DNA of 64,000 bases from a candidate division LCP-89 bacterium B3_LCP. GTDB taxonomy: Bacteria; Electryoneota; B3-LCP. Numbering within the stretch: the first letter of the stretch is position 1; the number at the start of each line of letters is the position of its first letter. Shown piece after piece: positions 40,922-64,000 of this stretch. The notes under the pieces were generated by a model that ran no database searches, had not been told where the DNA came from, and saw only the letters and a list, made by a program, of their open reading frames with translations. Made by a program: the position numbers and the translations under genes. The stretch lies in NCBI GenBank assembly GCA_005223185.1, contig NJBN01000009.1, positions 1,321 through 65,320 on the forward strand, given 5' to 3'.

Positions 40922-42913
40922 ATGCCTACTTACCTTCATCCGGGAGTTTACGTGGAAGAAATTCCCAGCGGAGTAAAGCCGATTGAGGGGGTTGCTACTT
41001 CCATAGCGGCTTTTATTGGTGAGGTTTACAAAGGACCGGCTAATGAAGCAGTGCTCATTCATAGTTGGGATGACTATGTAACTGAATTTTGTGACATAAC
41101 ATCAGAAGAAGACAAAATGGGTTTAGCCGTTTCCGCTTTTTACCAGAATGGCGGTAAGGATGCCTATATCGTGCGGCTAGTGAACAACGGTGTCAAGGCA
41201 TCGTTACCGACACCTCCTGGTACACCAGGTGAGAGTACCGGAGGAGCGGACGTTTTCGTTATCGAAGCCAGTAGTGTTGGAACCTGGGGTAATGATACCT
41301 ATGTCCGCATTGTCAAACCGAACACCACCGATCTCACCTTCGACCTGGAAGTCGGTCATATCGAAGACGGCGAATTCGAAGCTGACGAGGTATTCTCCGA
41401 CCTGAGTATGGACAATACTCTTGACAGCTACGTCCTGACGATAGTGAATCGTGATTCGTCCCTGATCAGTATATCCCTCACGGATATAGCCAATCCGGAT
41501 AAAACGGGCAATCTCTACAAAGCGGGCTCTTTGACCAGCGGTGTGGCGATGACCACTGCCACCTATTTTCAGAATAATATCGCTAACAACATGACTCTCA
41601 GCCTCAATATCAACAACCTGGGCAGAAAACGGATTACTCTTGGGGAGGCTTCCTCTTTCAGTTTCACCGGAACTCCTGATAATGATGCAGATGGTAAAAT
41701 ACTGGCTGCAGCCATCCAAAAAGCCGTCCTGGAGCTGGATCCTACGAATCCTCCTTACAAGAACTTTACCTGCGTGTACAACGATACTGCAGCTCCGAAC
41801 AAGTTCATCCTCTCTTCTGGGACAGCCATGCCGAATTCGACTGTATCCGTCTATGATGGTGATGAAAGTAGTACAGATCTGGCGAATGTCATCAAACTAA
41901 GTTCGAAGCACTCACCGGAATCCGTTCACGGCTCAGAGGATGTGATTCCAAAAGAACAGTTGGGTGTCGCTGAGCTGGGTATTCCTTTAGAAGGAGGAAG
42001 CGGTGATCCACCGACAGCAAATGATTACAAGAACTTTTTTGATCCTACATTGAAGAAGATTCGTGACATCAGTATAATGGTTCTTCCCGGGCAATACTGG
42101 GCTGCAAACGGATCTGGAAACGCAGCCATCAGTAATGCACTAACTCACGCAGACGTGATGAAAAACCGGATGGTGATCATCGATCCTGAACCAGGGACAG
42201 ATGGGGAATTAGATCAAGCTAAAAAGGTAACGGATATGGAGCTCAACACTTCCACTTATGGGGTTCTTTACTACCCTTGGGTGAAAGTCGCCAATCCATT
42301 CTATCATGCCGAAACTAATCCTAATGTTTCCAAAACGCTAACAATAGCTCCGTCTGCTTTCGCTGCCGGCATGTGGTCTAAGGTAGATGGCAAGAGAGGC
42401 GTCTGGAAAGCACCAGCCGGCATGGATACTTCGCTTTTAGGCGTTGCGGGACTTGAATATATAGTCGGGGATGGAGAACAAGATCAGCTCAATCCTATGG
42501 GCGTGAACTGTCTACGCAAAATGCCCGGGTATGGTACCGTAATCTGGGGCACGCGAACCCTTTCCACTAAAGCCAATCCAGAGTGGCGTTACATCCCCAT
42601 AAGGCGCACCGCCATCTACATCGAACAGAGCATCTACAACGGCATTCAATGGGCGGTGTTTGAACCGAACTGTCATATCCTGTGGTCCAGCTTGAGGACG
42701 AACATCACCTCATTTATGAATGGTATGTTCCGCAATGGCGCATTCCAGGGTGAAAAAGCTTCCGATGCCTATTTCGTCCGCTGTGATTTGGGAGATACCA
42801 TGACTCAGGATGACATCGACCGTGGACAGGTGATTGTGATCGTCGGTTTTGCTCCCCTAAAACCGGCAGAGTTCGTCATCGTTCGTATCCAGCAAAAAGT
42901 AGCACAGCAATAA
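40922..42913 (+). CDS. Contractile tail sheath protein (eCIS/Afp2-4/Pvc2-like)
   Basis: Hallmark N-terminus MPTYLHPGVYVEEIPSGVKPIEGVATSIAAFIG shared by phage and eCIS sheath proteins. 663 aa. AGGAG RBS 8 nt upstream. Confidence 0.9.
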   Translation: MPTYLHPGVYVEEIPSGVKPIEGVATSIAAFIGEVYKGPANEAVLIHSWDDYVTEFCDITSEEDKMGLAVSAFYQNGGKDAYIVRLVNNGVKASLPTPPGTPGESTGGADVFVIEASSVGTWGNDTYVRIVKPNTTDLTFDLEVGHIEDGEFEADEVFSDLSMDNTLDSYVLTIVNRDSSLISISLTDIANPDKTGNLYKAGSLTSGVAMTTATYFQNNIANNMTLSLNINNLGRKRITLGEASSFSFTGTPDNDADGKILAAAIQKAVLELDPTNPPYKNFTCVYNDTAAPNKFILSSGTAMPNSTVSVYDGDESSTDLANVIKLSSKHSPESVHGSEDVIPKEQLGVAELGIPLEGGSGDPPTANDYKNFFDPTLKKIRDISIMVLPGQYWAANGSGNAAISNALTHADVMKNRMVIIDPEPGTDGELDQAKKVTDMELNTSTYGVLYYPWVKVANPFYHAETNPNVSKTLTIAPSAFAAGMWSKVDGKRGVWKAPAGMDTSLLGVAGLEYIVGDGEQDQLNPMGVNCLRKMPGYGTVIWGTRTLSTKANPEWRYIPIRRTAIYIEQSIYNGIQWAVFEPNCHILWSSLRTNITSFMNGMFRNGAFQGEKASDAYFVRCDLGDTMTQDDIDRGQVIVIVGFAPLKPAEFVIVRIQQKVAQQ

Positions 42914-42932
42914 TAAAATAAAGGAAGGAGCT

Positions 42933-43442
42933 ATGCCTACAACGCTTTTTTCCGTGAACACTCATCGCCATGATCCGTACCGCACTTTTAAATTTCAGAT
43001 CATTATAGACGGTAATGTGGTAGCAGGACTGAAAAAGATGGGTGCCTTGAAGAAGAAGACCGAACCAGTAAAATGGCGCGCTTCCAACGATCCATCCCAT
43101 GAGAGAATTATGCCCGGTGGAACCAGCTATGAACCTGTGGCATTGGAACAGGGCCTGACGCATGATTTGGTCTTTGAGGAATGGGCAAACAAGGTCAACA
43201 ACATCGAGGGTGATGCTGCAGTATCCCTGAAGGATTTTCGCAAGGACATTGTCATCAACGTGCTCAATTTATCGGGGCAGGTGGCAATATCCTACAAATT
43301 ATTCCGTGCCTGGGTCTCCGATTTTCAGGCTCTGCCTGATTTGGATGCGGGCAGCATGAATACGGTGGGCATTCAGACGATTACGCTGCAGCATGAAGGC
43401 TGGGAGAGAGACACCGGCGTATCTGAACCGACGGAGGCTTAA
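42933..43442 (+). CDS. Tail tube protein (T4 gp19 / Afp1/5-like)
   Basis: 169 aa. The motif …YRTFKFQIIIDGNVVAGLKKMG…EPVKW…YEPV.LE.G is characteristic of eCIS and phage inner-tube subunits. Confidence 0.85.
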   Translation: MPTTLFSVNTHRHDPYRTFKFQIIIDGNVVAGLKKMGALKKKTEPVKWRASNDPSHERIMPGGTSYEPVALEQGLTHDLVFEEWANKVNNIEGDAAVSLKDFRKDIVINVLNLSGQVAISYKLFRAWVSDFQALPDLDAGSMNTVGIQTITLQHEGWERDTGVSEPTEA

Positions 43443-44275
43443 TGCGGCTTCCCGGAGGACTCGTTCAGGACGGTAGGCTACTCCGGGAATGCACTTTCAA
43501 ACCACTCACCGGCAAGGTTGAATTGGAGCTCTTCACGGTTCTGGATTCAATGTCTAGTATGCCAGAGCAGGTGACTATCACTCTATCGATGCTATTGAAA
43601 CACCTGGGTGGGGAGAAAGTGACTCCGGAAAAGGTCAGCCAACTGTGCATAGCAGACCGCCAGTTCCTGATGCAGCAGCTTGCCGTCCACATGGGCGAGG
43701 ATGAGCTTTGGTACACGGCTGTATGCTTTGAATGCGAGCAGCGGTTCGATTTCCAGATTCGGACGTCAGAACTACCGGTAAGGGAGGCGCGACCGGGATA
43801 CCCGCATATAAGCGTGGATACCTCTCTGGGTAGATGCCGGTTGCGGTTACCTACGGGAGATGATCAGAGTATCATCTCTGGATTTTCAGATACCGATGTA
43901 GCCTTTAAACAGTTAGTCAAGCGGAGTATCCTCTCGCTTGAGAAAGGCGATAAGAAGAGAAATATATCAGATACTCTGTTATCGAAGTTCACCAAGGATG
44001 ACGTTGCAGTTATGGAAGAGGCAATGGATTCTGTTTCTCCGGCAATTGTGACCTCAATTAGTACGACCTGTCCGGAATGCGGTCACAGAAATATTGCCAA
44101 GATCGATCCGTACTTCATTCTGGAGCATTTCAGCGACAACTTGATCTCTGAGATTCACGTCCTGGCTTCTACTTATCACTGGAGCGAATCTGACATTCTA
44201 GCTCTGCCTCGCCAGCGGCGCCACCATTACCTTTCGCTCATCGATCAACGTACATCGGTGGATGATTATCATTAA
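43442..44275 (+). CDS. Hypothetical eCIS-associated protein with two Cys pairs (CFECEQRF … CPECGHRN)
   Basis: TAATG overlap with the tube gene. 277 aa. Putative zinc-ribbon-like Cys pairs about 150 aa apart. Role unknown; it may be an assembly chaperone. Confidence 0.4.
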   Translation: MRLPGGLVQDGRLLRECTFKPLTGKVELELFTVLDSMSSMPEQVTITLSMLLKHLGGEKVTPEKVSQLCIADRQFLMQQLAVHMGEDELWYTAVCFECEQRFDFQIRTSELPVREARPGYPHISVDTSLGRCRLRLPTGDDQSIISGFSDTDVAFKQLVKRSILSLEKGDKKRNISDTLLSKFTKDDVAVMEEAMDSVSPAIVTSISTTCPECGHRNIAKIDPYFILEHFSDNLISEIHVLASTYHWSESDILALPRQRRHHYLSLIDQRTSVDDYH

Positions 44276-44287
44276 TGATGGATAAAT

Positions 44288-45421
44288 ATGGGATTATTTC
44301 TCGACGTCGTAAGGGATAGTAAAAGGAGAGTCAAGAGTTCGGTGACGAATCCGCGTTCCGCGGGCAGACCTCTGCATTCTGTCTCTTCCCCCACTGAAAT
44401 AACTCACAACCCTGCTGCAGATAAAACTTCGGCCGCCTCGAATCGTACGGTATCGAATACAGCCAGCCAGAACAGAAAAGAGAGTACCAAACCTGCTGAG
44501 AGAAATCAAAATATTTCTCATACCACTTCAGGAGAGTCCACACAGAAGATCCACTTGAAACCGCCCTTTTCGATTGTAAATCGATCAGAAAAACCCAAAG
44601 CAAAGAAACAGAGAAAAGAAACACCGAAACCAACAAAGCTGCAAAGCAAAAGCGGGCGCGGAAGAATCGAAAAACCTGAGGAAGTGCAGGTATCCGGGTT
44701 GTTAAAAAGCAGGAAAACTCCCGCTCAAGAGAACCGCCCACAACATATTGAGGCAAAGAAATCCAAATCCGGCAATAAGAAACGTGAGAGGCGCAAAAGA
44801 AAACCGGAGACCGCTCAAATCAAGGCTGCCATACGTTCAGAGCCGCAAAAACAATCAGACGCACAGCCCATGATGAAGGAGATTCCTGCACAGAAACCTG
44901 ACACATCAGAAAGGAGACCGCTTCGGGTAGAACCAATCGAATCGAAATTCCCATTCCCGGGTCATCAAACCGGTGAAAAACAGAAGGTGGAGAAAGCGTC
45001 GAGGCAGACCTCACCAGATGAAGAAGAGGTAGGTGAAGGTACTCTCTTAGCTGAAGGGGAAGGTTTAAAAAGAGGAGAGGAAGGTTATTATTCTAAAGCG
45101 GCCAATGAGACAATTGTCAGCAATTTTAACGAAACGAGTTCGAGGGAAAGAGTTCAGGACGTAGAAGTGAATGATGTGCAGACGAAAATTACCCCTTACG
45201 AAACGTCCCATCAGCCAGAGATTTCTAGGCCGTTGGAAGAGCCGCTCAGTCATGTTGAAAGCGTTTCCGGCCCTGAACCACCCATCTCTCACGAGCCCAC
45301 TGTCCAGATCGGGTTGGTAGAGGTCATAGTGGCTGTGCAGGATGGACATTCCGGGCGCAAGGTAGCTCATGAATCCTCACCCGGAGATTTCACCAGCCGG
45401 CACTATTTGCGGAGTGTTTGA
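44288..45421 (+). CDS. Low-complexity Lys/Glu/Pro/Ser-rich protein. Putative tape-measure-like or disordered scaffold.
   Basis: 377 aa, strongly basic, with a repetitive K/R/E/P/S/T composition and a hydrophobic C-terminus (PTVQIGLVEVIVAVQDG). Its position between the tube and the cap matches the Afp14-like tape measure slot. Confidence 0.4.
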   Translation: MGLFLDVVRDSKRRVKSSVTNPRSAGRPLHSVSSPTEITHNPAADKTSAASNRTVSNTASQNRKESTKPAERNQNISHTTSGESTQKIHLKPPFSIVNRSEKPKAKKQRKETPKPTKLQSKSGRGRIEKPEEVQVSGLLKSRKTPAQENRPQHIEAKKSKSGNKKRERRKRKPETAQIKAAIRSEPQKQSDAQPMMKEIPAQKPDTSERRPLRVEPIESKFPFPGHQTGEKQKVEKASRQTSPDEEEVGEGTLLAEGEGLKRGEEGYYSKAANETIVSNFNETSSRERVQDVEVNDVQTKITPYETSHQPEISRPLEEPLSHVESVSGPEPPISHEPTVQIGLVEVIVAVQDGHSGRKVAHESSPGDFTSRHYLRSV

Positions 45422-45423
45422 GA

Positions 45424-46494
45424 ATGGCAAATACACCAGAATCCTCACTATCGAAGGCTTGTAAGGTTGTAGCTGATTTCTTGAATGATAAGCTATCGGC
45501 TGGCAATTGGCTGGAAGTCAGCATTGGGAATCTCGCTGATGCTCATAAGCCGTCAGCTAACATAGAGTATCGCATCAACCTGTATTTTTACAACTTCGAG
45601 CCTTCAGGATTTTTCCCGGACATCGCTCCGGAAGATACCTGGTGGCTAAAAACCTATTGTCTCATAACGGCTTTTAGCTTCTCAGAGTCAAGCGATGAAA
45701 GTTCGGGCGAGGGCGAACTAGGACTTCTCGGTAATGTGATACGCGTATTCCATGAATCTCCGGTCTTAACTGCTGACATATCGGGAACGGATTTCCTTCT
45801 ACAGATTATCTATCATCCTTTAAGCGTCGATGCTTTAAACAACCTTTGGTCCACCCAATCTGAAGCTATCCAGCGGGCCTCCATTGCTTATGAAATATCC
45901 CTCTGTCCAGTTATCCCAGAAAAAGAGAAATCGACGTACACTCGTGCAGGTGCATTCGGCACCGAAGTACGCCCAGAAGTCAGTTCGAAGACCAAGACTG
46001 AAAAATTCTCTGGTAAATTCCCCGATGATTACAAGTGGCCCCATGTGACGAAAACTGAGGTGGATATCTTGCCTGAAGACTGGGCACCTGCCATCTGTTT
46101 CGTTCATAATAACGAATGCGCGCAGATTTTATATTTCCTTAAGGGAAGTGCTGAACTTGCAGATTTTAAAAGTCCCGTATGGATTGCTGGAGAAAAAGAT
46201 GCTAAAGTGACGCTCCAGTGGGAAGTATGGACAAGATCGGGAGGATGGGTGAAGAAGACTGGGAAGGATGTAACCATTGAACAACCGGATATCGATCCCG
46301 CGGTAATCGATCCCGATTTGGTTGACAAGGCGAAGACGGTAAATTTTGCTCCAACCGGGATTTCAATCCCCGCTGATGAAATTAGCTGTCAAGCAATGCT
46401 TTACGCCATTCGCAAATACAAACGGGGATTCGATCAACTGGAGATTGAAGTACGAAGTAACCCCTTGTTGGTAACGATTTACAAGAATCCGTGA
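45424..46494 (+). CDS. Tail terminator/cap protein (Afp16/Pvc16-like, DUF4255-like)
   Basis: The N-terminal pattern (…VADFLNDKL…W.EVSIGNL…INLYFYNFEPSGFFPD…) resembles the DUF4255 family. Its position next to the AAA+ ATPase is as in Afp15/Afp16. An alternative TTG start lies at 45418. Confidence 0.5.
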   Translation: MANTPESSLSKACKVVADFLNDKLSAGNWLEVSIGNLADAHKPSANIEYRINLYFYNFEPSGFFPDIAPEDTWWLKTYCLITAFSFSESSDESSGEGELGLLGNVIRVFHESPVLTADISGTDFLLQIIYHPLSVDALNNLWSTQSEAIQRASIAYEISLCPVIPEKEKSTYTRAGAFGTEVRPEVSSKTKTEKFSGKFPDDYKWPHVTKTEVDILPEDWAPAICFVHNNECAQILYFLKGSAELADFKSPVWIAGEKDAKVTLQWEVWTRSGGWVKKTGKDVTIEQPDIDPAVIDPDLVDKAKTVNFAPTGISIPADEISCQAMLYAIRKYKRGFDQLEIEVRSNPLLVTIYKNP

Positions 46495-47831
46495 TGAATG
46501 CAAAACCTGAAACGTGCACGCTGGATGCATTAACTCTGGAATGGGAGCGTGTAGAATTACTGGCGCGCTTTCTCTCAGATTCGCGTGCAGGGCACACGAT
46601 TCCTCAAGAGAAATTAGATCATCTGCAGTCGCTCCAACAGCAGATAGATGTGTGCAGGAAGCAGACCAATCCCTGGAATGATCTGGTTCCGGTGAGGCTT
46701 TCTCCGCTTGAGCAGGATATCCTGGCATGTATCATCGCACCTGAGGCTATCCCCCGCATCGCCTGGCTATTTCAGTCGCTGCAACCGGGAGTTCCCCAGC
46801 CCTATCCAACTTTAGCTCTCTTACAAGAATTATTAGCTCTTTCACCGACCGAATCTTCCCAACTTTATACGGTTCTTTCAGAAGACTACCCCTTACGTAT
46901 GCACCGTCTGGTCGATCTGCAGGGTAGTGAATTATCCCAGCCGGTACAGCCTTCACCAAGAGTAATTTCGATTTTGTTACAGCGCCCACACCTGATGAGC
47001 AATCTTCCCGGCACAGTACGAATTCGAAATTCTGTTAGCTGGGCAGATTTAATTCTACCTCAGGAGCGTAAGACGATCCTAAAAGAATTTCTGTTCTGGA
47101 TTCAACATAAACAGATTGTAGTTCAGGAGTGGGGCGGCAGCGACTGTGGTGGTCCGATCGGCCTATTTTCAGGCCCCTCAGGTACTGGAAAAACGCTGGC
47201 TGCTGTCGTTTTAGCCAATGAATTAGGATGGCCCCTGTACCGCGTCGATTTAGGATGCCTGGTCAGTAAATACATCGGTGAAACCGAAAAGAACCTGAAC
47301 CGATTATTCGATGCCGCCCACGAGCAAAAACTGGTATTGCAGTTCGATGAGGCAGACAGCCTGTTCAGCAAACGTGGCGAGGTGAAAGAAGCTCGCGACC
47401 GTTATGCTAATATGGAGGTCAGCCATCTGTTGGCGCGCATCGAAAGTCACCAGGGGCCTGTGATTCTGACTACAAATTTACGCAAACATCTCGATACCGC
47501 CTTCGTACGACGTTTCCAGGTTGTTGTCGATTTCCCGAGACCGGATAAAACGGCCCGGGCGCAGTTGTGGAAATGTCATTTGCCTGCAGGAGCACCTTTA
47601 TTGCCTGAAATTGACCCAGCTTTCTTAGGTGAGGCGGTTAATTTGACAGGTGGGCACATCCGTAATGCGGCACTGTACGCCTCTTATATTTCGGCTGGAT
47701 ACGGGCAGAAAATCGGTTATAAGCAGATATCTCTCGCCGTATGGCGCGAACTCAACAAGGAAGGCAGAGAGGTTTCACAATCCGACCTGGGACCGTTAGC
47801 GGAATATTTAGTATTGGATGGTCTATGTTAG
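46494..47831 (+). CDS. AAA+ ATPase (Afp15/Pvc15-like)
   Basis: Walker A GPSGTGKT, Walker B LVLQFDEADSLF and a sensor region. TGATG overlap with the upstream gene. Confidence 0.85.
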   Translation: MNAKPETCTLDALTLEWERVELLARFLSDSRAGHTIPQEKLDHLQSLQQQIDVCRKQTNPWNDLVPVRLSPLEQDILACIIAPEAIPRIAWLFQSLQPGVPQPYPTLALLQELLALSPTESSQLYTVLSEDYPLRMHRLVDLQGSELSQPVQPSPRVISILLQRPHLMSNLPGTVRIRNSVSWADLILPQERKTILKEFLFWIQHKQIVVQEWGGSDCGGPIGLFSGPSGTGKTLAAVVLANELGWPLYRVDLGCLVSKYIGETEKNLNRLFDAAHEQKLVLQFDEADSLFSKRGEVKEARDRYANMEVSHLLARIESHQGPVILTTNLRKHLDTAFVRRFQVVVDFPRPDKTARAQLWKCHLPAGAPLLPEIDPAFLGEAVNLTGGHIRNAALYASYISAGYGQKIGYKQISLAVWRELNKEGREVSQSDLGPLAEYLVLDGLC

Positions 47832-48067
47832 TGATCGATAAACTGAAGATTCATCTTCCAGCACAGATGCGCAACCGCGCTGATATAATTGCACGATTGG
47901 TTGCACAAGAGTTGACCTCCACTTCCCAGAAATCGGAAATAACGATAAGCGAACTTAGAACGCCTGCTGTACAGGTACATTCATCTTTCACCGATAATCA
48001 GATTGCACGGTGCATTTCCACCGAAATCCAAACTCAAATCAATCAATTGTCCGTTGAGTCATGTTGA
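47826..48067 (+). CDS. Small hypothetical protein (80 aa)
   Basis: The ATG overlaps the ATPase stop (ATGTTAG). The listed ORF 47741-48067 is longer, but its 5' part overlaps the ATPase in another frame. Confidence 0.3.
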
Positions 48068-48696
48068 AAACTACTAAAGCAATGCTGGTGGAGTATGCCT
48101 TATCCATTCCACCGCTAATTTTACTTTTCGAGTTTAATCCCAAGTTTCTATCGCGCACACGCACTATCACCCTAAAGACTGGAAACGCACCCGGCACTCA
48201 GGGCGGTTACGATTTCACTTTACCGACGGAGACTCCCCGGGTAGCGCAGGGAGTAACCGTTCAACCTGAAACCTTTTCCATAGACATTTTAATCGATGGC
48301 ACTGACCGCATGAATGAGGGTAATGCTATCGTTAAGACGTTTGGTATCGAACCGGAACTCGATACTCTGCGCTGCATGGTTGAACCGAAATCGCAAGGCC
48401 CATTAGGCTTGCAAACCCTGTCCAGTTTGGGACTTGGTGGCGAACGAGCATTTCAGCAATCTGAATCTGCATCGGTGTTGCTTCTGGTTTGGGGTACACA
48501 TATTCTACCTATTTTTCTCACCAGCGCTCAGATTAAGGAAACTGCACATCTTCCTTCCCTGGTACCTTATCGCGCGGAAGTGACCCTCAGCATGCAAATC
48601 ATCGAAGGAAACAACGTCTTTTACATGGTGGAAAAGATACGCCAGGTGGTAAGTGCGGCGATGAACACAGTCGATACTATTGGAGGATTCTTTTAA
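48061..48696 (+). CDS. Hypothetical baseplate/tube-associated protein (possibly Afp7-like tube initiator)
   Basis: 211 aa. Overlapping start and stop on both sides (ATGTTGA; TAATG). Immediately followed by the LysM/gpX gene, as in Afp7, where the tube-like and LysM domains are fused. Confidence 0.35.
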   Translation: MLKTTKAMLVEYALSIPPLILLFEFNPKFLSRTRTITLKTGNAPGTQGGYDFTLPTETPRVAQGVTVQPETFSIDILIDGTDRMNEGNAIVKTFGIEPELDTLRCMVEPKSQGPLGLQTLSSLGLGGERAFQQSESASVLLLVWGTHILPIFLTSAQIKETAHLPSLVPYRAEVTLSMQIIEGNNVFYMVEKIRQVVSAAMNTVDTIGGFF

Positions 48697-48986
48697 TGTT
48701 CAAGAAGGGTTCAAGGTACGAGAAAGCCAGGACGTTCGACCCGGATGCGGATGGCAGCGTGGTGTTAAATGGAGTTCGTCCACGTAAGATCGGCAAGGCA
48801 ACCGGCATGGTAATGCATACGGTTAAGGCTGGTGAACGCATCGATTTGCTGGCACATCATTATTATAACGATGACCGTTTATGGTGGAGGATTGTCGATG
48901 CCAATCCAGAGTTCTTCTACGGAGGAAATATCATTACCAAAGAAATGGAGGGCTCCGTCATCATGATTCCGAAAGCAAAGGAATAG
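48696..48986 (+). CDS. LysM-like tail protein X (P2 gpX family)
   Basis: The pattern …GERIDLLAHHYYNDDRLWWRIVDANP… is a LysM / P2 gpX signature. 96 aa. Confidence 0.7.
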   Translation: MFKKGSRYEKARTFDPDADGSVVLNGVRPRKIGKATGMVMHTVKAGERIDLLAHHYYNDDRLWWRIVDANPEFFYGGNIITKEMEGSVIMIPKAKE

Positions 48987-48987
48987 C

Positions 48988-55500: not shown

Positions 55501-56216
55501 CCGGCTATGACCCGGAAGAGGTTGTTGTAGCAGTAAAAGCAGCTCTGGAAGATGAATTCTCACTGAAAAATCGCAAACTGGGGCAGGCGGTTTACCTAAG
55601 TGAAGTGTACAAAATTGTCGAAGCTACTGCAGGGGTTGAGAATTCCAGAGCCGAACTTAACGAAGATCCGGACGCCCTGAAAATCCCCACGAATAACACG
55701 AATAACAAAAGAGCTGTGCAGATAATCGGCGAGTGCATTGTTACTTATGTTAGCTCTACAACCCAGACTAGCACCGGATTATCAGGACCAGGACCAACTT
55801 CACCACCGAGCGTTGTTCTATCCATCGGCGCGAGAGATCCCTCAATCATCCAGGGGATTGGCACGAAATACCAAAGCATTCTTGCCAGTCAGGGGGTAAG
55901 AACAATCGAAGGTTTGGCTAAACTCGATCCGGAGATTAGCATAGCAGGTATCGCCAGTACGAGACGTTGGTGGTTTAGCACCCGTGCCAGGATCATTCTG
56001 GAGTCTGAATTTGACAGCTCGCAGTTATACGCTCTTCAGAACTATTCCGTAATGGCTATATTACAAAGCCCAACCAGCGATCTATACAATTCCACAGGCC
56101 TCTCTACCGATGTAATCAGCGAGACGAAATCAAGTCTAAGGCGTTTGCAGAGTATTATCGATGACGAGGTTCTCGAACAGGTTACGTTGAGAGAATTATC
56201 AAAATCATCGCGTTAA
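52551..56216 (+). CDS. Large baseplate protein (1222 aa, Afp11/gp6-gp7-like)
   Basis: ATGA overlap with the upstream baseplate-J gene. Size and position match the large eCIS baseplate subunits. The real start MSERFDL is at 52551, not at the ORF-track start 52482. Confidence 0.55.
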   Translation: MSERFDLTRWNRAGLSRFRYLNGNAVTHLEDLRKAFLAVAKFADWDVLSAIEPVEVVSPNSDEGEIAAASAPRWLNSNQVPSGETGKSETESEKIERLLENYNREREDWAWEISRAFARACHVLTEHVDCYANEGFLGTATQWDNVRRLVEMIDYHPAPPASASTPLIIKAKEGLSGTIEAGFQAKYAPSDGSEPLIFETLDDLEVDSQINEIRPLNYNRNQDTQSGKSFIVDEVIEDLVIGEPLVLEDENNGNLFARIVTGFSTEDTGTRITLDQTLPEPEADDSLTKGYMKIHAIPKDRLTLLGPAEEGNVQQLDTLHLTTEPEELLPEMVVYISDGNNHYYRFISSLTQNCIELSNTISDLYLSKAQVGLPVLISATKVTDGGSGVNLIQPIVENMGQVIEVGENVGAVYKTSSANISLSSKGSESGNIENMGFSVENLQAAKAGESVEVKSKVPNTGRDITFQVGEDGSVQYKVAGDWERLAGKKIAIAMEKNNPISFDLISVDYHECVENEYDSLRGYTVFKIADNSNLNPDQDFLVPPANDGEWKTDTFLERDDNTNTIPSGITTEEPQKTSAGDIAVIVRNGGYAWARLESVSLNAEDEEASLTAESGREEYWKEYPNKNSERRFYLTETTVFGHFSKELRIHDWQVNNLSLTGTDVSTETVPDCLDKGRRVIVVNEDNSDLTLDTTVADIQNDNDTDTVILSDPLPSGFTYGNTVLRGNVVTCGHGESKGEKVLGSGDATRSNQSFLFKEEGVSFTADATQLSGVRAAIDVQVNGETWEQVGNLNYSEPTDKQYTIRMAEDGYLLIGFGDGRKGRRLPTGTNNVRLTYRKGAGLSGNISAGGITKPAKPNRLVDTIQQPFAATGGNDMEGVESLRENAPATLLTLERAVSLTDYSNLANSHSSVWQAKAFSLPTGLGRNEIIEVVVVPANGGLLGDLKETLRSYIAEYSLPNVTILVEDYESISFSLDVILNVNTTGYDPEEVVVAVKAALEDEFSLKNRKLGQAVYLSEVYKIVEATAGVENSRAELNEDPDALKIPTNNTNNKRAVQIIGECIVTYVSSTTQTSTGLSGPGPTSPPSVVLSIGARDPSIIQGIGTKYQSILASQGVRTIEGLAKLDPEISIAGIASTRRWWFSTRARIILESEFDSSQLYALQNYSVMAILQSPTSDLYNSTGLSTDVISETKSSLRRLQSIIDDEVLEQVTLRELSKSSR

Positions 56217-56238: not shown

Positions 56239-57834
56239 TTGAGTACAGAGCCGGAAAAGAAGGAGAAGATATTTCACCCCAAGATCGGGGATCAACTATT
56301 CCAGTTGCTACCCGAGGTGTATAGAACCCGAGATAACTCGACCGAGGATGCACCGGGTGATTTAGGTAGATATCTAGATGCTTGCGGTGAACTTTTAGAC
56401 TCGATCTATTATACCCTGGATCAGCGGTTGGCGGATTCATTCCCCGATGTTCCTGAAAAAGGATTGACCTGCCAAACCTGGCTTCTCCCTTACATGGCGC
56501 AGCTCCTGGATGCCAGGTTGACCTCCCCCGATGCGGACGGGAAACGCACAGAAGTGGCAAACGCCATTTTGTGGCGGCAGAGTAAGGGCACTTTTCCGTG
56601 CATCGAAAAGGTTGCCGAAGCAGTGGGGCGGCTTGACATTGAACCTCAGGAAGGTTGGAAACGGGTGGCTACCACAGCGCGGATCGGAATGCCATTACTG
56701 CGCTCGGAAGCATTGGGAATTCCGGAGGATTTCGATAATCCTTCATATATGGCTCATCCTAACTTCGCATCCCGGCATCCCGGCTTGCCTTCGGTGACCA
56801 TTGATTTTCGCAGGCCCTCCCATGCAATTCAGGTCGGTGAAGGTAAAGAGATCGCCAACCGTGAAGCGGTCACCAAGGAAACCAAATTAAAAGTCAAGGA
56901 CATATTCTGGTATCAATGCCATACGCATGTGTATCCCTGCTATCCTGGAACTTACGAAGACGTATCCAGACGAACTGTAGATGTTCGTACACCTTCGTGG
57001 AAACATGGTCATTATCACCCCAAGAGGTTACTGCTTTATGAACCGATTCCCGCAGGCTTTTTTGAATTTGGGGAAATCTATCCTGCAAAAAATATGGTGA
57101 TAACAGAATCCACCACCTTAGAGAATGCGGTCATCAAAGGTAAGATAACAGTTAAAAACGGAACTCTGACCCTGAAACGCTGTGCGGTTCGTGAGATAGA
57201 ATATAGCTCGAATTGGCAGAACAAAGGTGCTAAGGAACCGATATTCATTGCTGAAGACAGTCTGATCGGTTCCACAACTGCGAATATACCAGGGTTGGTG
57301 CTGATGGAGTACTGCACGGTATTGGATAATTTTGACTGCAATTACATTCGTGCAAGCGACTGTATTTTTAAGGGAGAACTTAACGTTTCGGGGAAGATAC
57401 TTGCTATAATAGATGAAAAGGGTATAAACAGATCAAACTGCGTCCGTTTTTCGAGGATTCCACAGGATACCTTTATACCGGGAATGGATGTCCATCCAGA
57501 ATCCTTTGATACGAACACTCACGAGCCGCCTATGTTTTATAAGACGATGGAATTCGAGAACAACGCCACATCCTATCATCCAATCGCCTTTGGTGATCCG
57601 GGGTGCGGGGTGCTGCACCCATCGACGCCGGATTCCATTAGGTTTGGCGCCGAAGATGGCGGAGAGATGGGCGCTTATCATTACAAACAGTATTGTCTGC
57701 GGGAAGCTGCTATATTGGATAAATTAAAGGATTTCCTGCCGGTTGGAATAGAAGCGGCTTTAATTCCCGATCACCGCCTAAACGAAAAGCCTTTATCCTG
57801 CGAAGATAAACCAGGAACCGAATCGACGGAGTAA
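56239..57834 (+). CDS. Baseplate protein, phage P2 gpI family (Afp12-like)
   Basis: TTG start. WLLPYMAQLLDARL…EVANAILWRQSKGT matches the P2 tail protein I signature (LP.LA.LLG…WR.KGT). Confidence 0.65.
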   Translation: MSTEPEKKEKIFHPKIGDQLFQLLPEVYRTRDNSTEDAPGDLGRYLDACGELLDSIYYTLDQRLADSFPDVPEKGLTCQTWLLPYMAQLLDARLTSPDADGKRTEVANAILWRQSKGTFPCIEKVAEAVGRLDIEPQEGWKRVATTARIGMPLLRSEALGIPEDFDNPSYMAHPNFASRHPGLPSVTIDFRRPSHAIQVGEGKEIANREAVTKETKLKVKDIFWYQCHTHVYPCYPGTYEDVSRRTVDVRTPSWKHGHYHPKRLLLYEPIPAGFFEFGEIYPAKNMVITESTTLENAVIKGKITVKNGTLTLKRCAVREIEYSSNWQNKGAKEPIFIAEDSLIGSTTANIPGLVLMEYCTVLDNFDCNYIRASDCIFKGELNVSGKILAIIDEKGINRSNCVRFSRIPQDTFIPGMDVHPESFDTNTHEPPMFYKTMEFENNATSYHPIAFGDPGCGVLHPSTPDSIRFGAEDGGEMGAYHYKQYCLREAAILDKLKDFLPVGIEAALIPDHRLNEKPLSCEDKPGTESTE

Positions 57835-57837
57835 GTC

Positions 57838-60800
57838 ATGAAAACGCAAATATCACGGGATAGTTACAGCAAGAAAGACCGTTATTCAGGCGTGTACCAG
57901 CAACAAGGACGCATGCTCACCGATGCGGACTGGAACGAGTCCATCGAAGTCTTCAAGGGGCTTCTACAGGAAGCCTTGAAAGACGTCATAGGTGATGGTG
58001 CGCCGCGGTCAAATGCACTCACCATTGAACAATCATCTGGTCTTAAAAAGAAAATCTATATCAAACCTGGTGATCTCTATGTGGATGGTCTGCGTGCTGA
58101 ACTTGCTGAACTTTCGGATGGGTCAAATATAGCCCTCAATGGACAAGATGATCTCCCCCTCGATGAACAGTGTTATCTCCCCACCGGTAGCAATTTCACA
58201 AATCCCACAAACTGTATTATCTATGCGGACGTCTGGGATCGTTCGATAACGTCCTTGGAAGACACTGACCTGCGTGATCCAGGCCTTCACGGAGCGGATA
58301 CCTGTACCCGTACTCAGCGCATGTTACAGATCAAATGGTGTCCGGACACTATCGACCCGGAAAATCCTGATGAGATGGTTAGAAAAGGAGATGCAGCGCT
58401 AACCCTCGAGTTGAGGTCCAACGAACCCTCTGCTGATGTCTGCAATCCCTGTTCGCAGTTACTCGAATCCGAGATTGGCGATGTGGGCAACTACCTGTTC
58501 CGTTTGGAAGTGCATGATATAGAGGTTGATGAAACATCTGGCAATCCGACCAAACTTACCCTGAAGTGGTCATCTGAAAACGGTGCTGAAAGCTACGAAG
58601 CCAAGAGTGAATCCGAGATGCCGCCGGGATTTGTTAACAGCTTTTCCGACGACGGCAGTTATGTGTATGAATTCTTCAGCGATACCAGTGAAAAGCACTT
58701 AGGCGTACATAAAGCGACTGAGTATAAGCCGATACGGGGTGCAATTAAAGAGAGCTACGATCCAAAAAGTGAACCATACGTCCGCCGCTGGGATGGCTAT
58801 TGCATTCTCACATATTCCGGGGGGGAGTGGTCGCTGGAAAAAACCAAAGTATTGGGCAAGAATAAGTACAAGGGAACGGATTCGAACAAAAGATTAGAAG
58901 AGAAAGCTACCCTAAAAGATAAACAACTCGGCGACGTCGTTATCAATAACGACATCGTCATACAGCTTGAAGCGTTGCAATTGACATTAACCTTGAAAGA
59001 TAATAACTTTGTCGCTGGAGACTACTGGTTGGCGCCAGTACGCGCTGAAGTTGAATATCTCGACGATTTTCTTTTAATCAATGCAAAGCCGATTGGAATC
59101 GATCATCACTATCTCACTCTCGCAAGCGTGGATAACAATGGAGATGTAACTCAGTACGGTGACATGAATGATAAAAATCACCGCCGTCAAAATTTCCCAC
59201 CTCTGACTGATCTCAATGCTGAGGAAATTGGATATACCACTGATTGTAGTAATGACTTATTCGATTCTACAGACGATAATGTTGCGAAGGCACTAAACAG
59301 ACTTTGTCAAATTGCGGCAGAGCACATAGGCTTTTCCAATCCATGTCCAAAAAAAATAGGAATATTCAAGGGCGAAGAGATTGGTAACGTGGAAGACGCT
59401 TTGAATCTCTTGTGCCACCTGGCGGCTTCACATGTTAAATACACGCCCGGCGGTTGTATAAACAAAGTCGGAGAAGATGAGGAATTATATTATGGCATGG
59501 TAGAAAATACGGTGCAAGAAGCGCTGGATAAAATATGCGAGATTACAGCGAAACACATTACTTATGATCCGAGTTGTGCCTTTCTGAGGGATCAGAAGAA
59601 TCCTAAGATTGAAACAGTTCATGAAGCTCTCGAAGCGCTTTGCAACCGACCTACTGGCGGCAGCGGTGGGTGTAGAGTAACTGTGGGAAAAAAGGAAGAA
59701 GGAGCTGAGTTTGAGACACTAGATGAAGCGTTATCGTCTTGTTTGAGTCCCCAAATTAAAGACGTCTGCATTTGTCTTCTTCCCGGAAATCATAAGCCTC
59801 CATCTCAAGGAATACTTACAGAATTCAAAGGAAATAATTCGGAAGTCTCGAAGGGATTAAACATCAGTATAATAGGCTGCGGTCCAGGGTCTCGAATTGG
59901 CCTTGGGGATCAATCCCTTGAGTTCTCTCAGTTTAATTCTCTAACGTTTAAGGATTTCGAGTTTAATAGTTCAGAGAATGGCGGAGCACAATTATTTTTC
60001 GATAGTTGTACTAATGTGAATCTCTCTTCAATTAATTATGAAGGACATGTTGGCGATAAATCATCGCTGGTGAAGATAGGCGATGCAGAACGTATCCAGC
60101 TATTAGGAAACAAGTTCGAAGCCCGACGCTCCGATAGTCCGGAAAATCCTGCGGAGGTCTTCGAGTTTAATCCGGGGTATTCCGAATTGTTCCGCTTGTC
60201 TTCAAGGAATGAATTTCTCAAGGAGGTTCCTGAAGTAGCGCGAGAAATGAGCAGCCGTTTCTCTAAGGGGGGTGAAGTTACAAAAGCTCGCAATTCCATA
60301 ACCAACAGCAGGAATGCCATAGTAGCAAATCAACAGACAACTCACAAGGAACAAGTAAGTTACGATAGGCTCTTAGGTGTAATATCAGCGGCTGAAACGA
60401 TGGAACCTGAAATGGCAACAGCAGTTTACGCTGACATCTTAGTGCAGATATACGATTTTGCGCGTGAAGCAGCCCTTGAATGCTCACTGTCACTGATGGA
60501 TGCAAATGCTCAGACCATAATAAAGAATAATATCTTCAAAGGAGCTATTAGTCTATATGGTGAGCCGCCTGATAGCAGCGTTACTATAAATCTTGACGAT
60601 GAAATCCTCGGCAGCCAGCTTTTTAACCAGACGCTTAACCTGGCGACCTCAGATGTTGATTTACACTTCTGCAACAATGAAGTTATCAAATTTATCCTCG
60701 GTGCGCGTTATGCTGAGAGCCTTGCTGGAGCTCTAAAAGGAAAAGGTTCTACAATATCGGACTCAATACCGACGCTTTTTAAAACCGGTTATTTTACTGA

Positions 60801-61506
60801 TAACACGATAAAAGAATCGTATAACTACTTTTACTTTGGGCATCTTGACCTGACCTCCAACTCTTTTGAAACTTTAGAAGAAAATGCTGGTTTTGTGTTC
60901 GGTGGTTCCGCAATTTATGTAGGAAACAAGGGTAATAAAGGAGAAGAGGTAAGCAAAATATACAACTGCACCAATGCCTGCAGAAAAGCAGCAAATCTTC
61001 ATCTAAACATACAGGGATGTGAGGATCGTGTCTATGAAAATCCACCGGTAGTGGGAATAGACCTCGGTAGTTTAGGGATAACCGGCAATTACGCCGTTGC
61101 CTGGCAACCCGGGTCTATAACTCCGACAATAATAGACAAATCATCAAGTGTACTTACACCTACGCCTACACCTAGGCTTACGCCGACACCTACACCAACT
61201 CCGACACCTACGCCAACACCGACACCTAGGCCTACGCCAACACCAACGCCAACACCGACACCTAGGCCTACGCCAACTCCTACTCCAACACCTACGCCTA
61301 CGCCAACTCCTACACCTACGCCTACACCAACGCCAACACCGACACCTAGGCCTACGCCAACACCTACGCCTACACCAACACCTACGCCTATACCTGCACC
61401 GTTGACTCAGATTAAACCAACCGGCAAACCAAAGTCAACTGGAAAGTCTAAATCGCCAAAGAAAACCAGAGGGCCAGGAAAAACTAAACCCAAGAAGAAA
61501 CCTTAG
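57838..61506 (+). CDS. Tail fibre-like protein (1222 aa) with C-terminal (Thr-Pro)n linker and poly-Lys tail
   Basis: Position after the P2-I-like gene (the Afp13 slot). Cys-pair-containing repeated modules. About 80 residues of TPTPTPRP repeats (61153-61400), followed by [30 protein letters not shown]. Confidence 0.6.
61153..61400 (+). repeat. Imperfect tandem hexanucleotide repeat encoding (Thr-Pro)n
   Basis: ACACCTACGCCTACGCCAACACCGACACCTAGGCCT… units repeated about 40 times. An alternate frame gives the artefactual ORF 61148-61405 (LRLHLGLR…). Confidence 0.9.
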
Positions 61507-61561
61507 TTGCCGTGAATGGTAAGAAGGGAAAGAGGAAGTTGATATTGGACAGGGGGAATAG

Positions 61562-62923
61562 ATGAAAACCTTCGCTACTGTAGAAAAGCGCCAGGCGGAT
61601 AAGCCCCCGGTATTTGTGTATAATCCTTCTCTGAAGACCGAGCAGAAGCAGATAAGCCGCATCCTTCGCCCTCATACTGTCCAACCCAAACTCACCATCG
61701 GCGCACCCAACGACCGGTACGAACGGGAGGCCGACCGCGTCGCTGACCAGATCGTACGCATGCCTGATCACACTCTGCAACGGCAGCCGTTGGAGGAAGA
61801 GGAGGAGCTCCAGACCAAGCCCCTTGTCGATCAAATAACGCCGCTGGTGCAGAGGCAGGTTGAGGAGGAAGAAGAAGAGCTCATCCAGACGGTTCAGAGA
61901 CAATGCGATGAGGAAGAATGCTCTATCCAAACTCAGCAGGAGGTAAATCGCACATCAGAAGTAACTCCCGGTCTTGCTTCACAAATACAAGCCATCCGCA
62001 ATGGTGGCAGACAACTACCTCAGGGATGCCGCAACTATTTCGAACCGCGCTTTGGGCGTGATTTCAGTGATGTAAATATTCACACCGATTCTAAAGCCGC
62101 CGACATAGCTAAATCAGTAAATGCCAAGGCATTTACCATAGGACAAGACGTATTCTTCGGCTCAGGGCAGTTTGCACCCGGAACAGATAGTACAGAGCGC
62201 CTGCTAGCGCACGAGTTAACGCATGTGGTGCAGCAATCGTATGGAAATTCACAGAATTTTAATATACAAACGACAAACGGGGCAACTCCCACTACCTCTC
62301 TTTCAGGAATACGAGCTAATCGGATTGCATTTAACAATACAGGTTCCCCAAATAGTGATAACTGTGCAACTACTCAGCCTGCATCACTGGGAGTAGGGAT
62401 TAATGGTAACGCCCAGAATGCCATGGAAATTATTTACAGAATCAGTGGATCCATTCCACCGGGAACTGAGTTCGATATTACTCGAACTGTAAGAGATAAT
62501 GCCTGGGCAAGGAGTTCAGCAGGAACATGGACAAGTGTTGAACAAACACCGGCGGGAACGAAAGATGACTATCATGATTCTGATGAATGTCTAATACCTA
62601 ATGCGAATCGCATATTTGTTACGGATTCGCCTGGATTTAATGGGCTCAATCCAAGAGGAATGGTACTTGCAGCAGGTAATACTGTTCCAGCATTGGCAAC
62701 AGCATTCGTTTTTAAATTAAACTTTGCTGAATGGGTTATCGCTAGGAATCGTTCCCTGGGCATCGGCTGGACTACTATCTCCTCACCAGTATTTACTTTC
62801 TGGCACTCAATTACGTCGGTGTCTCTTAGTGGAGGTACTTGGAGTCTCGTAAATTTCCCAAACGCAGCAAACGAGATAGAACTAGGCAGTATAAGCACAT
62901 CAGGCGCAAGCCCTACAACCTAG
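61562..62923 (+). CDS. DUF4157-domain protein (zincin-like HExxH) with unique C-terminal domain; candidate eCIS effector
   Basis: The conserved block (…TIGAPNDRYEREADRVADQIV…GGRQLPQGCRNYFEPRFGRDFSDVNIHTDSKAADIAKSVNAKAFTIGQDVFFGSGQFAPGTDSTERLLAHELTHVVQQ) is the DUF4157 signature. It is followed by about 220 aa with no recognisable motif. Confidence 0.75.
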   Translation: MKTFATVEKRQADKPPVFVYNPSLKTEQKQISRILRPHTVQPKLTIGAPNDRYEREADRVADQIVRMPDHTLQRQPLEEEEELQTKPLVDQITPLVQRQVEEEEEELIQTVQRQCDEEECSIQTQQEVNRTSEVTPGLASQIQAIRNGGRQLPQGCRNYFEPRFGRDFSDVNIHTDSKAADIAKSVNAKAFTIGQDVFFGSGQFAPGTDSTERLLAHELTHVVQQSYGNSQNFNIQTTNGATPTTSLSGIRANRIAFNNTGSPNSDNCATTQPASLGVGINGNAQNAMEIIYRISGSIPPGTEFDITRTVRDNAWARSSAGTWTSVEQTPAGTKDDYHDSDECLIPNANRIFVTDSPGFNGLNPRGMVLAAGNTVPALATAFVFKLNFAEWVIARNRSLGIGWTTISSPVFTFWHSITSVSLSGGTWSLVNFPNAANEIELGSISTSGASPTT

Positions 62924-63620
62924 CAACTGATAAATTTCTATGAGACTATTCGCCTCAAAAAACAGATATCCCACTAGAAAATCTTTCCTAGCATTGGGTC
63001 TTACGACTAAAGCCACCTTTTCCAATTCCTCGTCTTCCCACCCCCAACTCCGCCGCATCCTCCGCCCCCATTCCATCCAAACCAAGCTCACCATCGGATC
63101 ACCCAACGACCAGTACGAACGTGAAGCTGACCGCGTCGCTGATCAGATCGTGCGCATGCCTGATCACACTCTGAAGCGGCAGCCATTGGAGGAGGAAGAG
63201 GAAGAACTCCAGACCAAACCCATTGCTGATCAGATAACCCCGATGGTTCAAAGGCAGATAGAGGAGGAGGAAGAAGAAGAGCTCATCCAGCCTGATCGGT
63301 TACCGATAATTCAGAGACAGGAAGAAGAAGAGGAGGAAATAGTCCAGACCCTGCAGAGACAATGCGATGAGGAAGAGTGCCCCATCCAAACTCAGCAGGA
63401 CGCAAATAGATCATCAGAAGTAACTCCCAATCTCGCCTCACAAATACAAGCAATCCGAAGTGGCGGCAGATCCTTACCACAACCCTGCCGCAACTATTTC
63501 GAACCCCGCTTCGGCCGCGATTTCAGCGATGTCCATATTCACACCGATTCTAAAGCCGACGACGTAGCCAAATCAATAAATGCCAAAGCATTTACTTTAG
63601 GACAAGACGTCTTCTTCGGA
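61667..63620 (+). repeat. Tandem duplication of the DUF4157-encoding segment (61667-62235 and 63033-63620)
   Basis: Long stretches of nucleotide identity, for example CGAACGGGAGGCCGACCGCGTCGCTGACCAGATCGTACGCATGCCTGATCACACTCTG against CGAACGTGAAGCTGACCGCGTCGCTGATCAGATCGTGCGCATGCCTGATCACACTCTG. Confidence 0.8.
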
Positions 63621-64000
63621 TCGGGCCAGTTCGCACCCGGAACAGAAGGGACGAAGAAGCTGTTGGCGCATGAACTGACGCATGTGGTGCAGCAGAATTC
63701 GAATATCTTAAATTTTTCAAACATAATAATGCGAAAACAAAATCCAGCAGAAGGAACGGAGTGCAAAGAGTTTAAAGGTAGGTGGATTAAGAAAATAGTC
63801 GTCAATCAGGAGGGAGACCAGAAAGTCCACCTATATTGGAATGATGATAAAAAATCAGATACTGACAAATGTTCCACTGGAAAGGGGCACTGCTGTGTTG
63901 AATCTGATGGAATTGCCTGTTCTGAATCACAGTCTAGAGTTGGGGGAAGCAACTGTACACCAGTTAGTAGAGGTGATGGTGAACCTATTCAGAAATGCTA
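62940..64000 (+). CDS. Second DUF4157-domain protein (3' end beyond window) with different, Cys-rich C-terminal domain; candidate eCIS effector
   Basis: Frame 3 ATG at 62940. Absent from the ORF track because there is no stop codon in the window. The N-terminal 230 aa are about 85% identical to the upstream paralog, including LLAHELTHVVQQ. The C-terminus diverges (…ECKEFKGRWIKKIVVNQEG…CSTGKGHCCVESDGIACSES…). Confidence 0.7.
   Translation, partial: MRLFASKNRYPTRKSFLALGLTTKATFSNSSSSHPQLRRILRPHSIQTKLTIGSPNDQYEREADRVADQIVRMPDHTLKRQPLEEEEEELQTKPIADQITPMVQRQIEEEEEEELIQPDRLPIIQRQEEEEEEIVQTLQRQCDEEECPIQTQQDANRSSEVTPNLASQIQAIRSGGRSLPQPCRNYFEPRFGRDFSDVHIHTDSKADDVAKSINAKAFTLGQDVFFGSGQFAPGTEGTKKLLAHELTHVVQQNSNILNFSNIIMRKQNPAEGTECKEFKGRWIKKIVVNQEGDQKVHLYWNDDKKSDTDKCSTGKGHCCVESDGIACSESQSRVGGSNCTPVSRGDGEPIQKC

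Follow-up and report, generated by a model that had tools for sequence, protein, structure and literature searches.

What kind of injection machine is encoded towards the end of a stretch of DNA from the candidate division LCP-89 bacterium B3_LCP (contig NJBN01000009.1), and on which cells would it act? The stretch analysed, called the window below, has a length of 64,000 nucleotides (nt), and the locus in question spans position 40922 to the window end (64000). From the sheath gene to the window end it consists of 18 collinear genes, all on the plus strand. An earlier note, made from the DNA letters, had read them as a complete machine of the type of the antifeeding prophage (Afp) and the Photorhabdus virulence cassette (PVC). 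The component identities obtained from Pfam, PHROGs and PDB sequence searches agree with that reading, and the region is, judged from its genes, an apparently complete operon for a contractile injection system (CIS) of the Afp/PVC superfamily. It is best placed in lineage II of the extracellular CIS (eCIS), close to subtype IIa, and a particle that is released from the producer is the reading that we favour.

The genes that argue for membership of the superfamily are a sheath and a gp19 tube, baseplate-J, gp25, hub and spike proteins, a DUF4255 cap together with an Afp15-type ATPase, and DUF4157 genes at the 3' end. When metagenomes were scanned for relatives, a single sheath query gave no match and an alignment query gave matches, and 80 related loci were collected. 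Loci are referred to by L and a number, and the genes of the window as g1 to g18:

40922..42913, plus strand: g1, contractile sheath (Phage_sheath_1 1e-10, Phage_sheath_1C 6e-13)
42933..43442, plus strand: g2, inner tube, gp19/Hcp-like (Phage_T4_gp19 1.7e-37; CIS tube chains 9r9h_B, 7b5h_AN, 7adz_1a)
43442..44275, plus strand: g3, T4 gp26-family 'baseplate hub' protein (PF12322 2e-10; phrog_150 1.7e-14)
44288..45421, plus strand: g4, intrinsically disordered basic protein, isoelectric point 9.8 (Ser/Glu/Lys/Pro-rich, low complexity)
45418..46494, plus strand: g5, tail terminator/cap, Afp16/Pvc16, DUF4255 (Pvc16_N 8e-18)
46491..47831, plus strand: g6, Afp15-like AAA+ ATPase with a single AAA domain and an N-terminal winged helix (AAA 1e-25, WHD 1.6e-8)
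47825..48067, plus strand: g7, conserved protein of 80 amino acids (aa), with homologues at the same position in L008, L021, L016, L085 and L004
48061..48696, plus strand: g8, tube-fold protein, tube initiator, Afp5/7-like (CIS_tube 5e-6, 26.7 bits against a 27-bit cut-off)
48696..48986, plus strand: g9, LysM/gpX-like small baseplate protein, 96 aa (phrog_7145 'baseplate wedge subunit' 1.3e-12)
48988..50124, plus strand: g10, gp27/gpD-like hub, 378 aa (VgrG N-terminal halves of solved CIS structures)
50134..50946, plus strand: g11, gp5/gpV-like spike with conserved C-terminal HxH (Phage_base_V 3e-23)
50958..51347, plus strand: g12, gp25-like sheath initiator/wedge (GPW_gp25 1.9e-12)
51364..52554, plus strand: g13, short baseplate-J/gp6-like paralogue (phrog_6 'baseplate wedge subunit' 1.6e-10)
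52551..56216, plus strand: g14, long baseplate-J protein, 1221 aa (Baseplate_J 2.5e-9; 9gtp_1K 1.8e-6)
56239..57834, plus strand: g15, P2 gpI/gp7-like baseplate protein (Tail_P2_I 4.6e-4, 20.5 bits against a cut-off of 20.6)
57838..61506, plus strand: g16, DUF6519 (eBAP5) fibre, 1,222 aa (DUF6519 3.8e-17)
61562..62923, plus strand: g17, cargo/effector candidate with an acidic N-terminal domain, DUF4157 (HExxH) and a 200-aa beta-sandwich C-terminal domain (eCIS_core/DUF4157 1e-30)
62940..64000, plus strand: g18, second cargo/effector candidate, cut off by the window edge, with a Cys-rich C-terminal domain (eCIS_core 2e-30)

Every gene class named in the earlier note was present in its place, several of them through weak or non-Pfam matches. 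Family matches stand behind the sheath, which starts with MPTYLHPGVYVEEIPSG, the gp19-like tube, the cap next to an Afp15-like ATPase (Walker A GPSGTGKT at residue 228 of g6), the gpV-like spike, the gp25-like wedge, the baseplate-J proteins and the two DUF4157 HExxH proteins, while the 'very long tail fibre' proved to be a DUF6519 protein. The gpD-like hub has no Pfam match and was upheld as such because g10 aligns to the N-terminal halves (residues ~17-340) of three solved VgrG chains, 9rce_F (5.7e-8), 7b5h_AJ and 7aef_q. The P2-I-like call for g15 is borderline in the window and is supported by the homologues in L085 and L086, of which that of Geobacter hydrogenophilus (L086) has a confident precomputed Tail_P2_I match. 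The LysM/gpX call for g9 is weak in Pfam, where Phage_tail_X remained below threshold (E=0.01), but it is backed by the PHROG match to the baseplate wedge. No match was found for the cap g5 in the PDB sequence search, or for g7 in Pfam. The tube-fold protein g8 is 55-80% identical to its counterparts in related loci, and the N-terminus of g13 matches the single J proteins of distant loci. The C-terminus of the other J protein, g14 (about 55800-56216), carries a helix-hairpin-helix-like motif, IQGIGTKYQSILASQGVRTIEGLAKL, for which the HHH_5 match is sub-threshold (E=0.002).

The estimate of about 20 genes is correct if the upstream activator and DUF3467 genes described below are included, but 18 are counted from the sheath. 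Instead of the nine or more start/stop overlaps claimed, there are seven true overlaps (43442, 45418/21, 46491/94, 47825/31, 48061/67, 48696 and 52551/54), two further junctions having gaps of 1-3 nt (48986/88 and 57834/38).

In the scheme of Chen et al. 2019 (PMC6899500 section 10), a split VgrG is characteristic of subtypes IIa, IIb and IIc, two J genes of IIa and IIc, divergent Afp12/13 of IIa and IIb, and PAAR of IIa, IIc and IId. In the window, the afp8 counterpart is split, g10 matching only VgrG N-terminal halves and g11 carrying Phage_base_V; afp11 is represented twice, by g13 and g14; and the afp12 and afp13 counterparts are the divergent g15 (Tail_P2_I) and g16 (DUF6519). Because of the split VgrG, the two J genes and the divergent Afp12/13-like genes, the locus is best fitted by subtype IIa within lineage II. 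The afp10 PAAR gene of that subtype is missing, as PAAR gave no match in any open reading frame (ORF) scanned, and on gene content we describe the locus as IIa-like rather than as a proven IIa. The spike carries an HxH near its C-terminus, which was kept in 11/11 full-length homologues aligned. Spikes of the P2 gpV type have an iron-binding apex. By analogy, the HxH suggests a metal-stabilised apex in g11, with which a PAAR protein would be unnecessary.

The locus is a further member of a gene-cluster type that is already catalogued in hundreds of genomes. The suggestion that it is probably the undescribed system of the window was thus overstated: the same gene order is widespread, and lineage II eCIS loci, DUF4157 cargo and DUF6519 fibres have all been catalogued (PMC6899500, PMC8213781, PMC12923769). 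The locus itself is already in NCBI, with the annotation 'phage tail protein', and g1 has 100% identity to a B3_LCP protein there. The sheath has ~1,900 homologues at E<=1e-20; identity is 51-67% for the best 120 listed, and the named sources among these are Deltaproteobacteria/Desulfobacterales, Acidobacteriota, Thermoanaerobaculia, Nitrospina gracilis and Mariprofundaceae. The whole cluster, in the same order, was recovered from a metagenome contig (L002), Desulfobacter sp. CP054837 (L004), an Acidobacteriota metagenome-assembled genome (L085), G. hydrogenophilus (L086) and the Streptomyces anthocyanicus plasmid NZ_CP109103 (L087). The shared order runs sheath, tube, gp26-like protein, disordered protein, DUF4255 cap, ATPase, small protein, tube-like protein, LysM-like protein, hub, spike, gp25, J, J, gpI-like protein, DUF6519 and DUF4157 genes. 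Relatives end in arrays of 1-4 eCIS_core genes; four such genes close the cluster in L085 and one in L086, with unrelated genes after them. Among cultured bacteria the same architecture occurs in G. hydrogenophilus, Syntrophus gentianae, Desulfosarcina cetonica and Nitrospina gracilis. Within 10909-15384 of L002, the counterparts of g8, g10 and g13 are broken up into two or three ORFs apiece, either by assembly frameshifts or in a decaying locus.

DUF6519, the domain of the fibre g16, is the 'eBAP5' marker for baseplate attachment of eCIS tail fibres (PMC12923769). The N-terminal ~470 residues of g16 are strongly conserved and the C-terminal ~400 poorly, the homologues having ~1,000 aa and aligning over the first ~1,065 residues, and we take the N-terminal part as the predicted attachment domain. 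The fibre body beyond DUF6519 has no Pfam match. The AlphaFold model of g16 has a predicted local distance difference test score (pLDDT) of 77 overall and above 85 in most of the C-terminal half, and shows a beta-helix with an inserted helical bundle. In Foldseek, the model matched a Lactobacillus phage receptor-binding protein (9.5e-8) and phage phi812 baseplate proteins (1.4e-5), and more weakly alginate epimerase/lyase (polysaccharide lyase), glucanase and tailspike beta-helices. Near the C-terminus, an 18-nt tandem repeat (61120-61444) encodes (TP)n/(TPTPTPRP) over ~100 residues, after which a Lys-rich tail runs to 61506. No retrieved homologue aligns past residue ~1,065, and linker and tail were seen only here; they may bind surfaces electrostatically, or may be a slippage-prone linker. 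The best match of g16 is only 40% identical, and a genome-contig search with it gave only an unrelated Anaerolineales fragment. The exact g16 and g17 sequences are not in the protein and contig collections searched, which do contain the sheath of the same contig.

The last two genes resemble eCIS cargo. Through the acidic, Glu-rich N-terminal region and DUF4157, g17 and g18 are 64% identical, and they are unrelated right after HELTHVVQQ. In AlgoCIS, the disordered N-terminal domain of Cgo1/Cgo2 is the loading signal and the AAA+ ATPase is required, while DUF4157 is dispensable for loading (bioRxiv 10.64898/2026.05.27.728243). The C-terminal domains of g17 and g18 have no match in Pfam. That of g17 (62264-62920) belongs to a family of 160 representative sequences, in which it is always C-terminal. 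Of the 62 members scanned, about half have eCIS_core as its fusion partner, and others have Aspzincin_M35, PG_binding_1, OmpA or VanY. Its model is an all-beta structure (beta-sandwich) with a pLDDT of 94.7.

Two conserved genes between tube and cap, at 43442-44275 and 44288-45421, had been left undescribed in the earlier note. The first, g3, has invariant CxxC...CxxC and YHW motifs in the homologue alignment and follows the tube gene in nearly all of the 80 related loci, including those with a sheath only 30% identical; the PDB sequence search gave no match to a solved structure. The second, g4, matches nothing in Pfam, PHROG or PDB. Equivalents of it lie between the gp26-like and cap genes in L002 (7142-8302), L004 (13333-14238), L008 (from 7197) and L087 (about 9640-10519). 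They have conserved end motifs, N-terminal GxFxDVVRDS and C-terminal VQIGLVEV...SRHYLR, with a non-conserved middle and a total length of about 295-432 residues (L002, L004, L008). The g4 family is often unannotated; for the Streptomyces plasmid equivalent (L087), RefSeq annotates only a 53-aa fragment. Lineage II CIS have been reported to lack a tape measure gene, yet their particles have a fixed length (PMC6899500; PMC12237407), and no family match to an Afp14-type tape measure was found in the present cluster (Pfam, PHROG). In phages, sheath and tube genes are followed by those for an assembly chaperone and a tape measure, the places taken here by g3 and g4. Because of this phage-like order, the conserved ends and the lack of a known tape measure in lineage II, we propose g4 as a candidate tape measure (ruler) or tube-lumen protein, and g3 as an assembly factor or chaperone, perhaps for the g4 ruler.

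How the operon might be switched on is suggested by the following features just upstream of the sheath gene, which the earlier note had also missed:

38880..40238, plus strand: sigma-54 enhancer-binding protein with receiver, AAA+ domain with GAFTGA, and HTH_8 (Sigma54_activat 3e-67, HTH_8 3e-13, weak Response_reg), putative regulator of the operon
40239..40358, no strand assigned: five TGTAACA/TGTTACA heptamers, 5 of the 13 occurrences in the window lying inside these 120 bp
40439..40453, plus strand: sigma-54-type promoter candidate CGGTAT-N5-TTGC (GG-N10-GC element, GG and GC retained)
40518..40763, plus strand: DUF3467 small protein (PF11950 3.6e-13; 45% identity to the L002 counterpart)

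The promoter candidate lies 482 nt 5' of the sheath ATG and ~65 nt 5' of the DUF3467 gene, which is probably the first gene of the transcription unit; a strict TGG-N9-TGC search misses this degenerate site. The five heptamers are candidate binding sites (upstream activating sequences) of the activator. In L002 the same pair of activator and DUF3467 genes is found, with a perfect TGGCAC-N5-TTGC at the equivalent position and a similar TGTAAC cluster upstream of it. Among 56 related loci with sufficient upstream sequence, about 10 have, like L002, a sigma-54 activator gene upstream of the sheath, and eight have sigma-54 sites (<=1 mismatch) 380-750 nt 5' of the sheath, against ~0.9 expected from a background rate of 0.031 sites per kb. 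The module of activator and DUF3467 is common to only some related loci. Geller et al. list both DUF3467 (odds ratio 17.6) and Sigma54_activat among the families enriched in eCIS loci (Supplementary Data); the main text of that paper, when searched, had 0 occurrences of 'sigma' or 'DUF3467'. Scans for sigma-70 promoters and terminators inside the cluster gave matches at background level. Regulation of the operon by the sigma-54 activator would be consistent with these observations. In distant CIS loci (L022, L031, L036, L038, L041, L052, L067 and L080), the small gene between activator and sheath is of another family, located 300-500 nt 5' of the sheath, with the motif ILxYLxxHPxAxDTxEGIAxWWL and a winged-helix-like appearance; it is sometimes fused to, or precedes, a second small conserved protein (LNSGxTxHL motif).

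We hold with moderate confidence that the locus encodes an extracellular CIS, which is released and acts on other cells. In such a system, the response-regulator-type activator would turn on the sigma-54 promoter 5' of DUF3467 and the 18 genes. A baseplate would be assembled in the cytoplasm around the split hub g10 and the HxH-tipped spike g11, with g12, g13, g14 and g15 and the adaptors g8 and g9, and tube (g2) and sheath (g1) would polymerise on it, probably assisted by g3 and with g4 probably as internal ruler, until the cap g5 closes the particle. The ATPase g6 would load g17, g18 and any further DUF4157 proteins via their shared acidic N-terminal region. The particle would most probably be set free when the producer lyses. 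Its beta-helix fibres (g16) would then bind surface polysaccharide of another cell, whereupon the sheath would contract and spike, tube and cargo would be driven in. In favour of an extracellular mode are the fibre resembling phage receptor-binding proteins and having a variable distal half, the cargo of eCIS type and the membrane proteins missing from the cluster, transmembrane helix prediction having found none in any of g1-g18. The earlier description as extracellular fits the fibre and the absent membrane genes, but it is not established, the nearest solved sheaths being cytoplasmic or membrane-bound. It has been noted that the mode of action of a CIS cannot be read reliably from sequence (PMC12998442).

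Several points weigh against release. The closest solved sheath is that of the Streptomyces coelicolor system CIS-Sc (Cis2, 8BKY; E=1.6e-82, 281 bits, PDB sequence search), which is cytoplasmic, and third after two Streptomyces sheaths comes that of the membrane-bound CIS of Halogeometricum borinquense (9EZM; 3e-76, 260 bits, 35.5% identity). Every bacterial system of lineage II examined to date is cytoplasmic (PMC10066040, PMC12998442), these being of subtype IId, with no fibre and a fused VgrG. A lysis cassette was seen neither in the window nor behind the related clusters (L085, L086). As to the proposed steps, the promoter candidate of the window has three mismatches in the -24 element, the roles given to g3 and g4 derive from position and composition, and the model of the g17 C-terminal domain has no recognisable toxin fold or informative solved relative.

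The foremost alternative is a cytoplasmic CIS as in Streptomyces and Roseiflexus, the particles of which remain inside the cell that made them and, when it is stressed, are fired into its own envelope, leading to regulated cell death or release of contents. The sheath similarity, the precedent of the studied lineage II systems and the missing lysis cassette all suit it, and stress-type two-component/sigma-54 control would fit as well. However, the known cytoplasmic systems have no fibre and a fused VgrG, with a CisA adaptor in Streptomyces, whereas here VgrG is split, no membrane protein is encoded by g1-g18, and there is a fibre of 1,222 aa, of which the variable beta-helix half resembles phage receptor-binding proteins. 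We consider a cytoplasmic mode unlikely, while giving it real weight. Three bolder proposals, that g4 may be the missing length ruler of lineage II, that the operon may be under two-component/sigma-54 control and that the mode in a diderm could prove other than extracellular, appear doubtful to us as a set.

It is also possible, and in our judgement distinctly improbable, that the CIS is anchored in the membrane and acts on contact in the manner of a type VI secretion system (T6SS), as in H. borinquense or the T6SSiv of Amoebophilus. The rank of the H. borinquense sheath among the solved matches agrees with this, Cis11-13 of that organism may contact the membrane (PMC11566945), and g14 and g16 are large peripheral baseplate proteins. 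Yet the cluster contains no TssJLM, other anchor candidate or transmembrane segment and no recycling ATPase of the ClpV type, and a diderm envelope would demand a trans-envelope complex.

The phage ancestry of the sheath, tube, gp25, J, gpI, gpV and gpD-like genes and the phage-like order of sheath, tube, g3 and g4 would agree with an R-type tailocin or with the tail module of a myovirus prophage. This reading is highly improbable and was rejected, because the clusters of relatives (L085, L086) are followed by no phage head, lysis or membrane-complex genes and phage sheaths are only distant (the best from a phage genome is 34% identical over 62% of the length). The cluster also carries three eCIS markers, namely the DUF4255 cap, the Afp15-like ATPase and the DUF4157 proteins. 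In the 41 kb upstream, genes for a head, portal, terminase, integrase or lysis were not found, and the base composition has no break at the locus. T6SS i-iii were rejected as well, with a single sheath gene of phage type and no TssB/TssC, TssJLM or ClpV families in any ORF of the window. The statements that the system is neither a T6SS nor a prophage, and that the window lacks capsid, portal, terminase, integrase and TssJLM genes, therefore hold: none of these families occurred among the 25 upstream ORFs of >=150 aa, which also answers, for the upstream side, the proposal to check the flanking genes for phage heads.

The operon is chromosomal. Family scans of the ORFs assigned ordinary chromosomal functions to the upstream 41 kb, including the C-terminus of NapA, ferredoxins and NapB, two citrate synthases, a PAS histidine kinase, NrfD and Qmo/Hdr-like oxidoreductases. 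A block at 18530-38561 encodes large secreted proteins with sorting domains of the type IX secretion system (T9SS), among them a C25 gingipain-like peptidase and a PGA_cap/PKD protein. A small protein with a CyanoTRADDas_TM domain (7.8e-14; 17585-18127, minus strand) adjoins this block. A taxonomy look-up places the LCP-89 phylum under the Fibrobacterota-Chlorobiota-Bacteroidota (FCB) group, and the host picture drawn earlier, of an FCB-type bacterium with T9SS sorting domains and qmo/nap anaerobic respiration, was thereby confirmed. The sole tRNA gene of the window is 19 kb from the locus, tRNA-Gln being the only Rfam match.

The subtype is catalogued in genomes but experimentally unexplored. 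The present locus extends this experimentally untouched branch of CIS (lineage II, split VgrG, diderm environmental bacteria) to the candidate phylum LCP-89. Taken by itself, one such locus leaves the current understanding unchanged. The most useful leads are the proposal of g4 as a ruler, the sigma-54 control module and the cargo domain of g17. Cultured carriers of the same architecture make the mode of action, the g4 ruler, sigma-54 control and the g17 beta-sandwich domain testable.

The locus can be compared with the closest known systems. With the cytoplasmic CIS-Sc (subtype IId; 8BKY, 9GTP) it shares the single sheath gene, the absence of an Afp14-type tape measure and a J protein matching 9gtp_1K, whereas CIS-Sc has a fused VgrG, no tail fibre and another gene order, requires the membrane protein CisA and acts inside the producer. 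The H. borinquense CIS, described as an 'archaeal T6SS', has a lineage II-type cluster as well, there on a plasmid; it differs in being archaeal, bound to the cytoplasmic membrane and contact-dependent, with the anchor-associated Hbor_38620, to which nothing comparable was found in the window. Afp of Serratia entomophila and PVC of Photorhabdus (subtype Ia) have the same sheath, tube, initiator/LysM, spike, gp25, J, fibre, DUF4255 cap, ATPase and 3' cargo components. Unlike the locus described here, they have three sheath paralogues, a fused VgrG with PAAR, an Afp14 tape measure, a two-domain ATPase, an adenovirus-like fibre and another gene order, and their sheaths Pvc2 and Afp3 are far more distant than the Streptomyces and Halogeometricum ones (1e-52 and 7e-50, respectively), as is that of AlgoCIS (1.6e-38). 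AlgoCIS of Algoriphagus machipongonensis (subtype Ib, Bacteroidota) also comes from a host of the FCB group, and its cargo resembles g17 and g18 in having a disordered N-terminal domain, DUF4157 and a variable C-terminal domain, with N-terminal domains that are paralogous within the system; it differs in its fused VgrG, the tape measure Alg14 and another fibre and cage. The greatest likeness is to L002, L004, L085, L086 and L087, which have the split VgrG and the duplicated J gene and whose proteins are 33-85% identical to those of the window. From these the locus is set apart by its host phylum LCP-89, by the unique (TP)n linker and Lys-rich tail of its fibre, and by the other C-terminal domains of its DUF4157 proteins.

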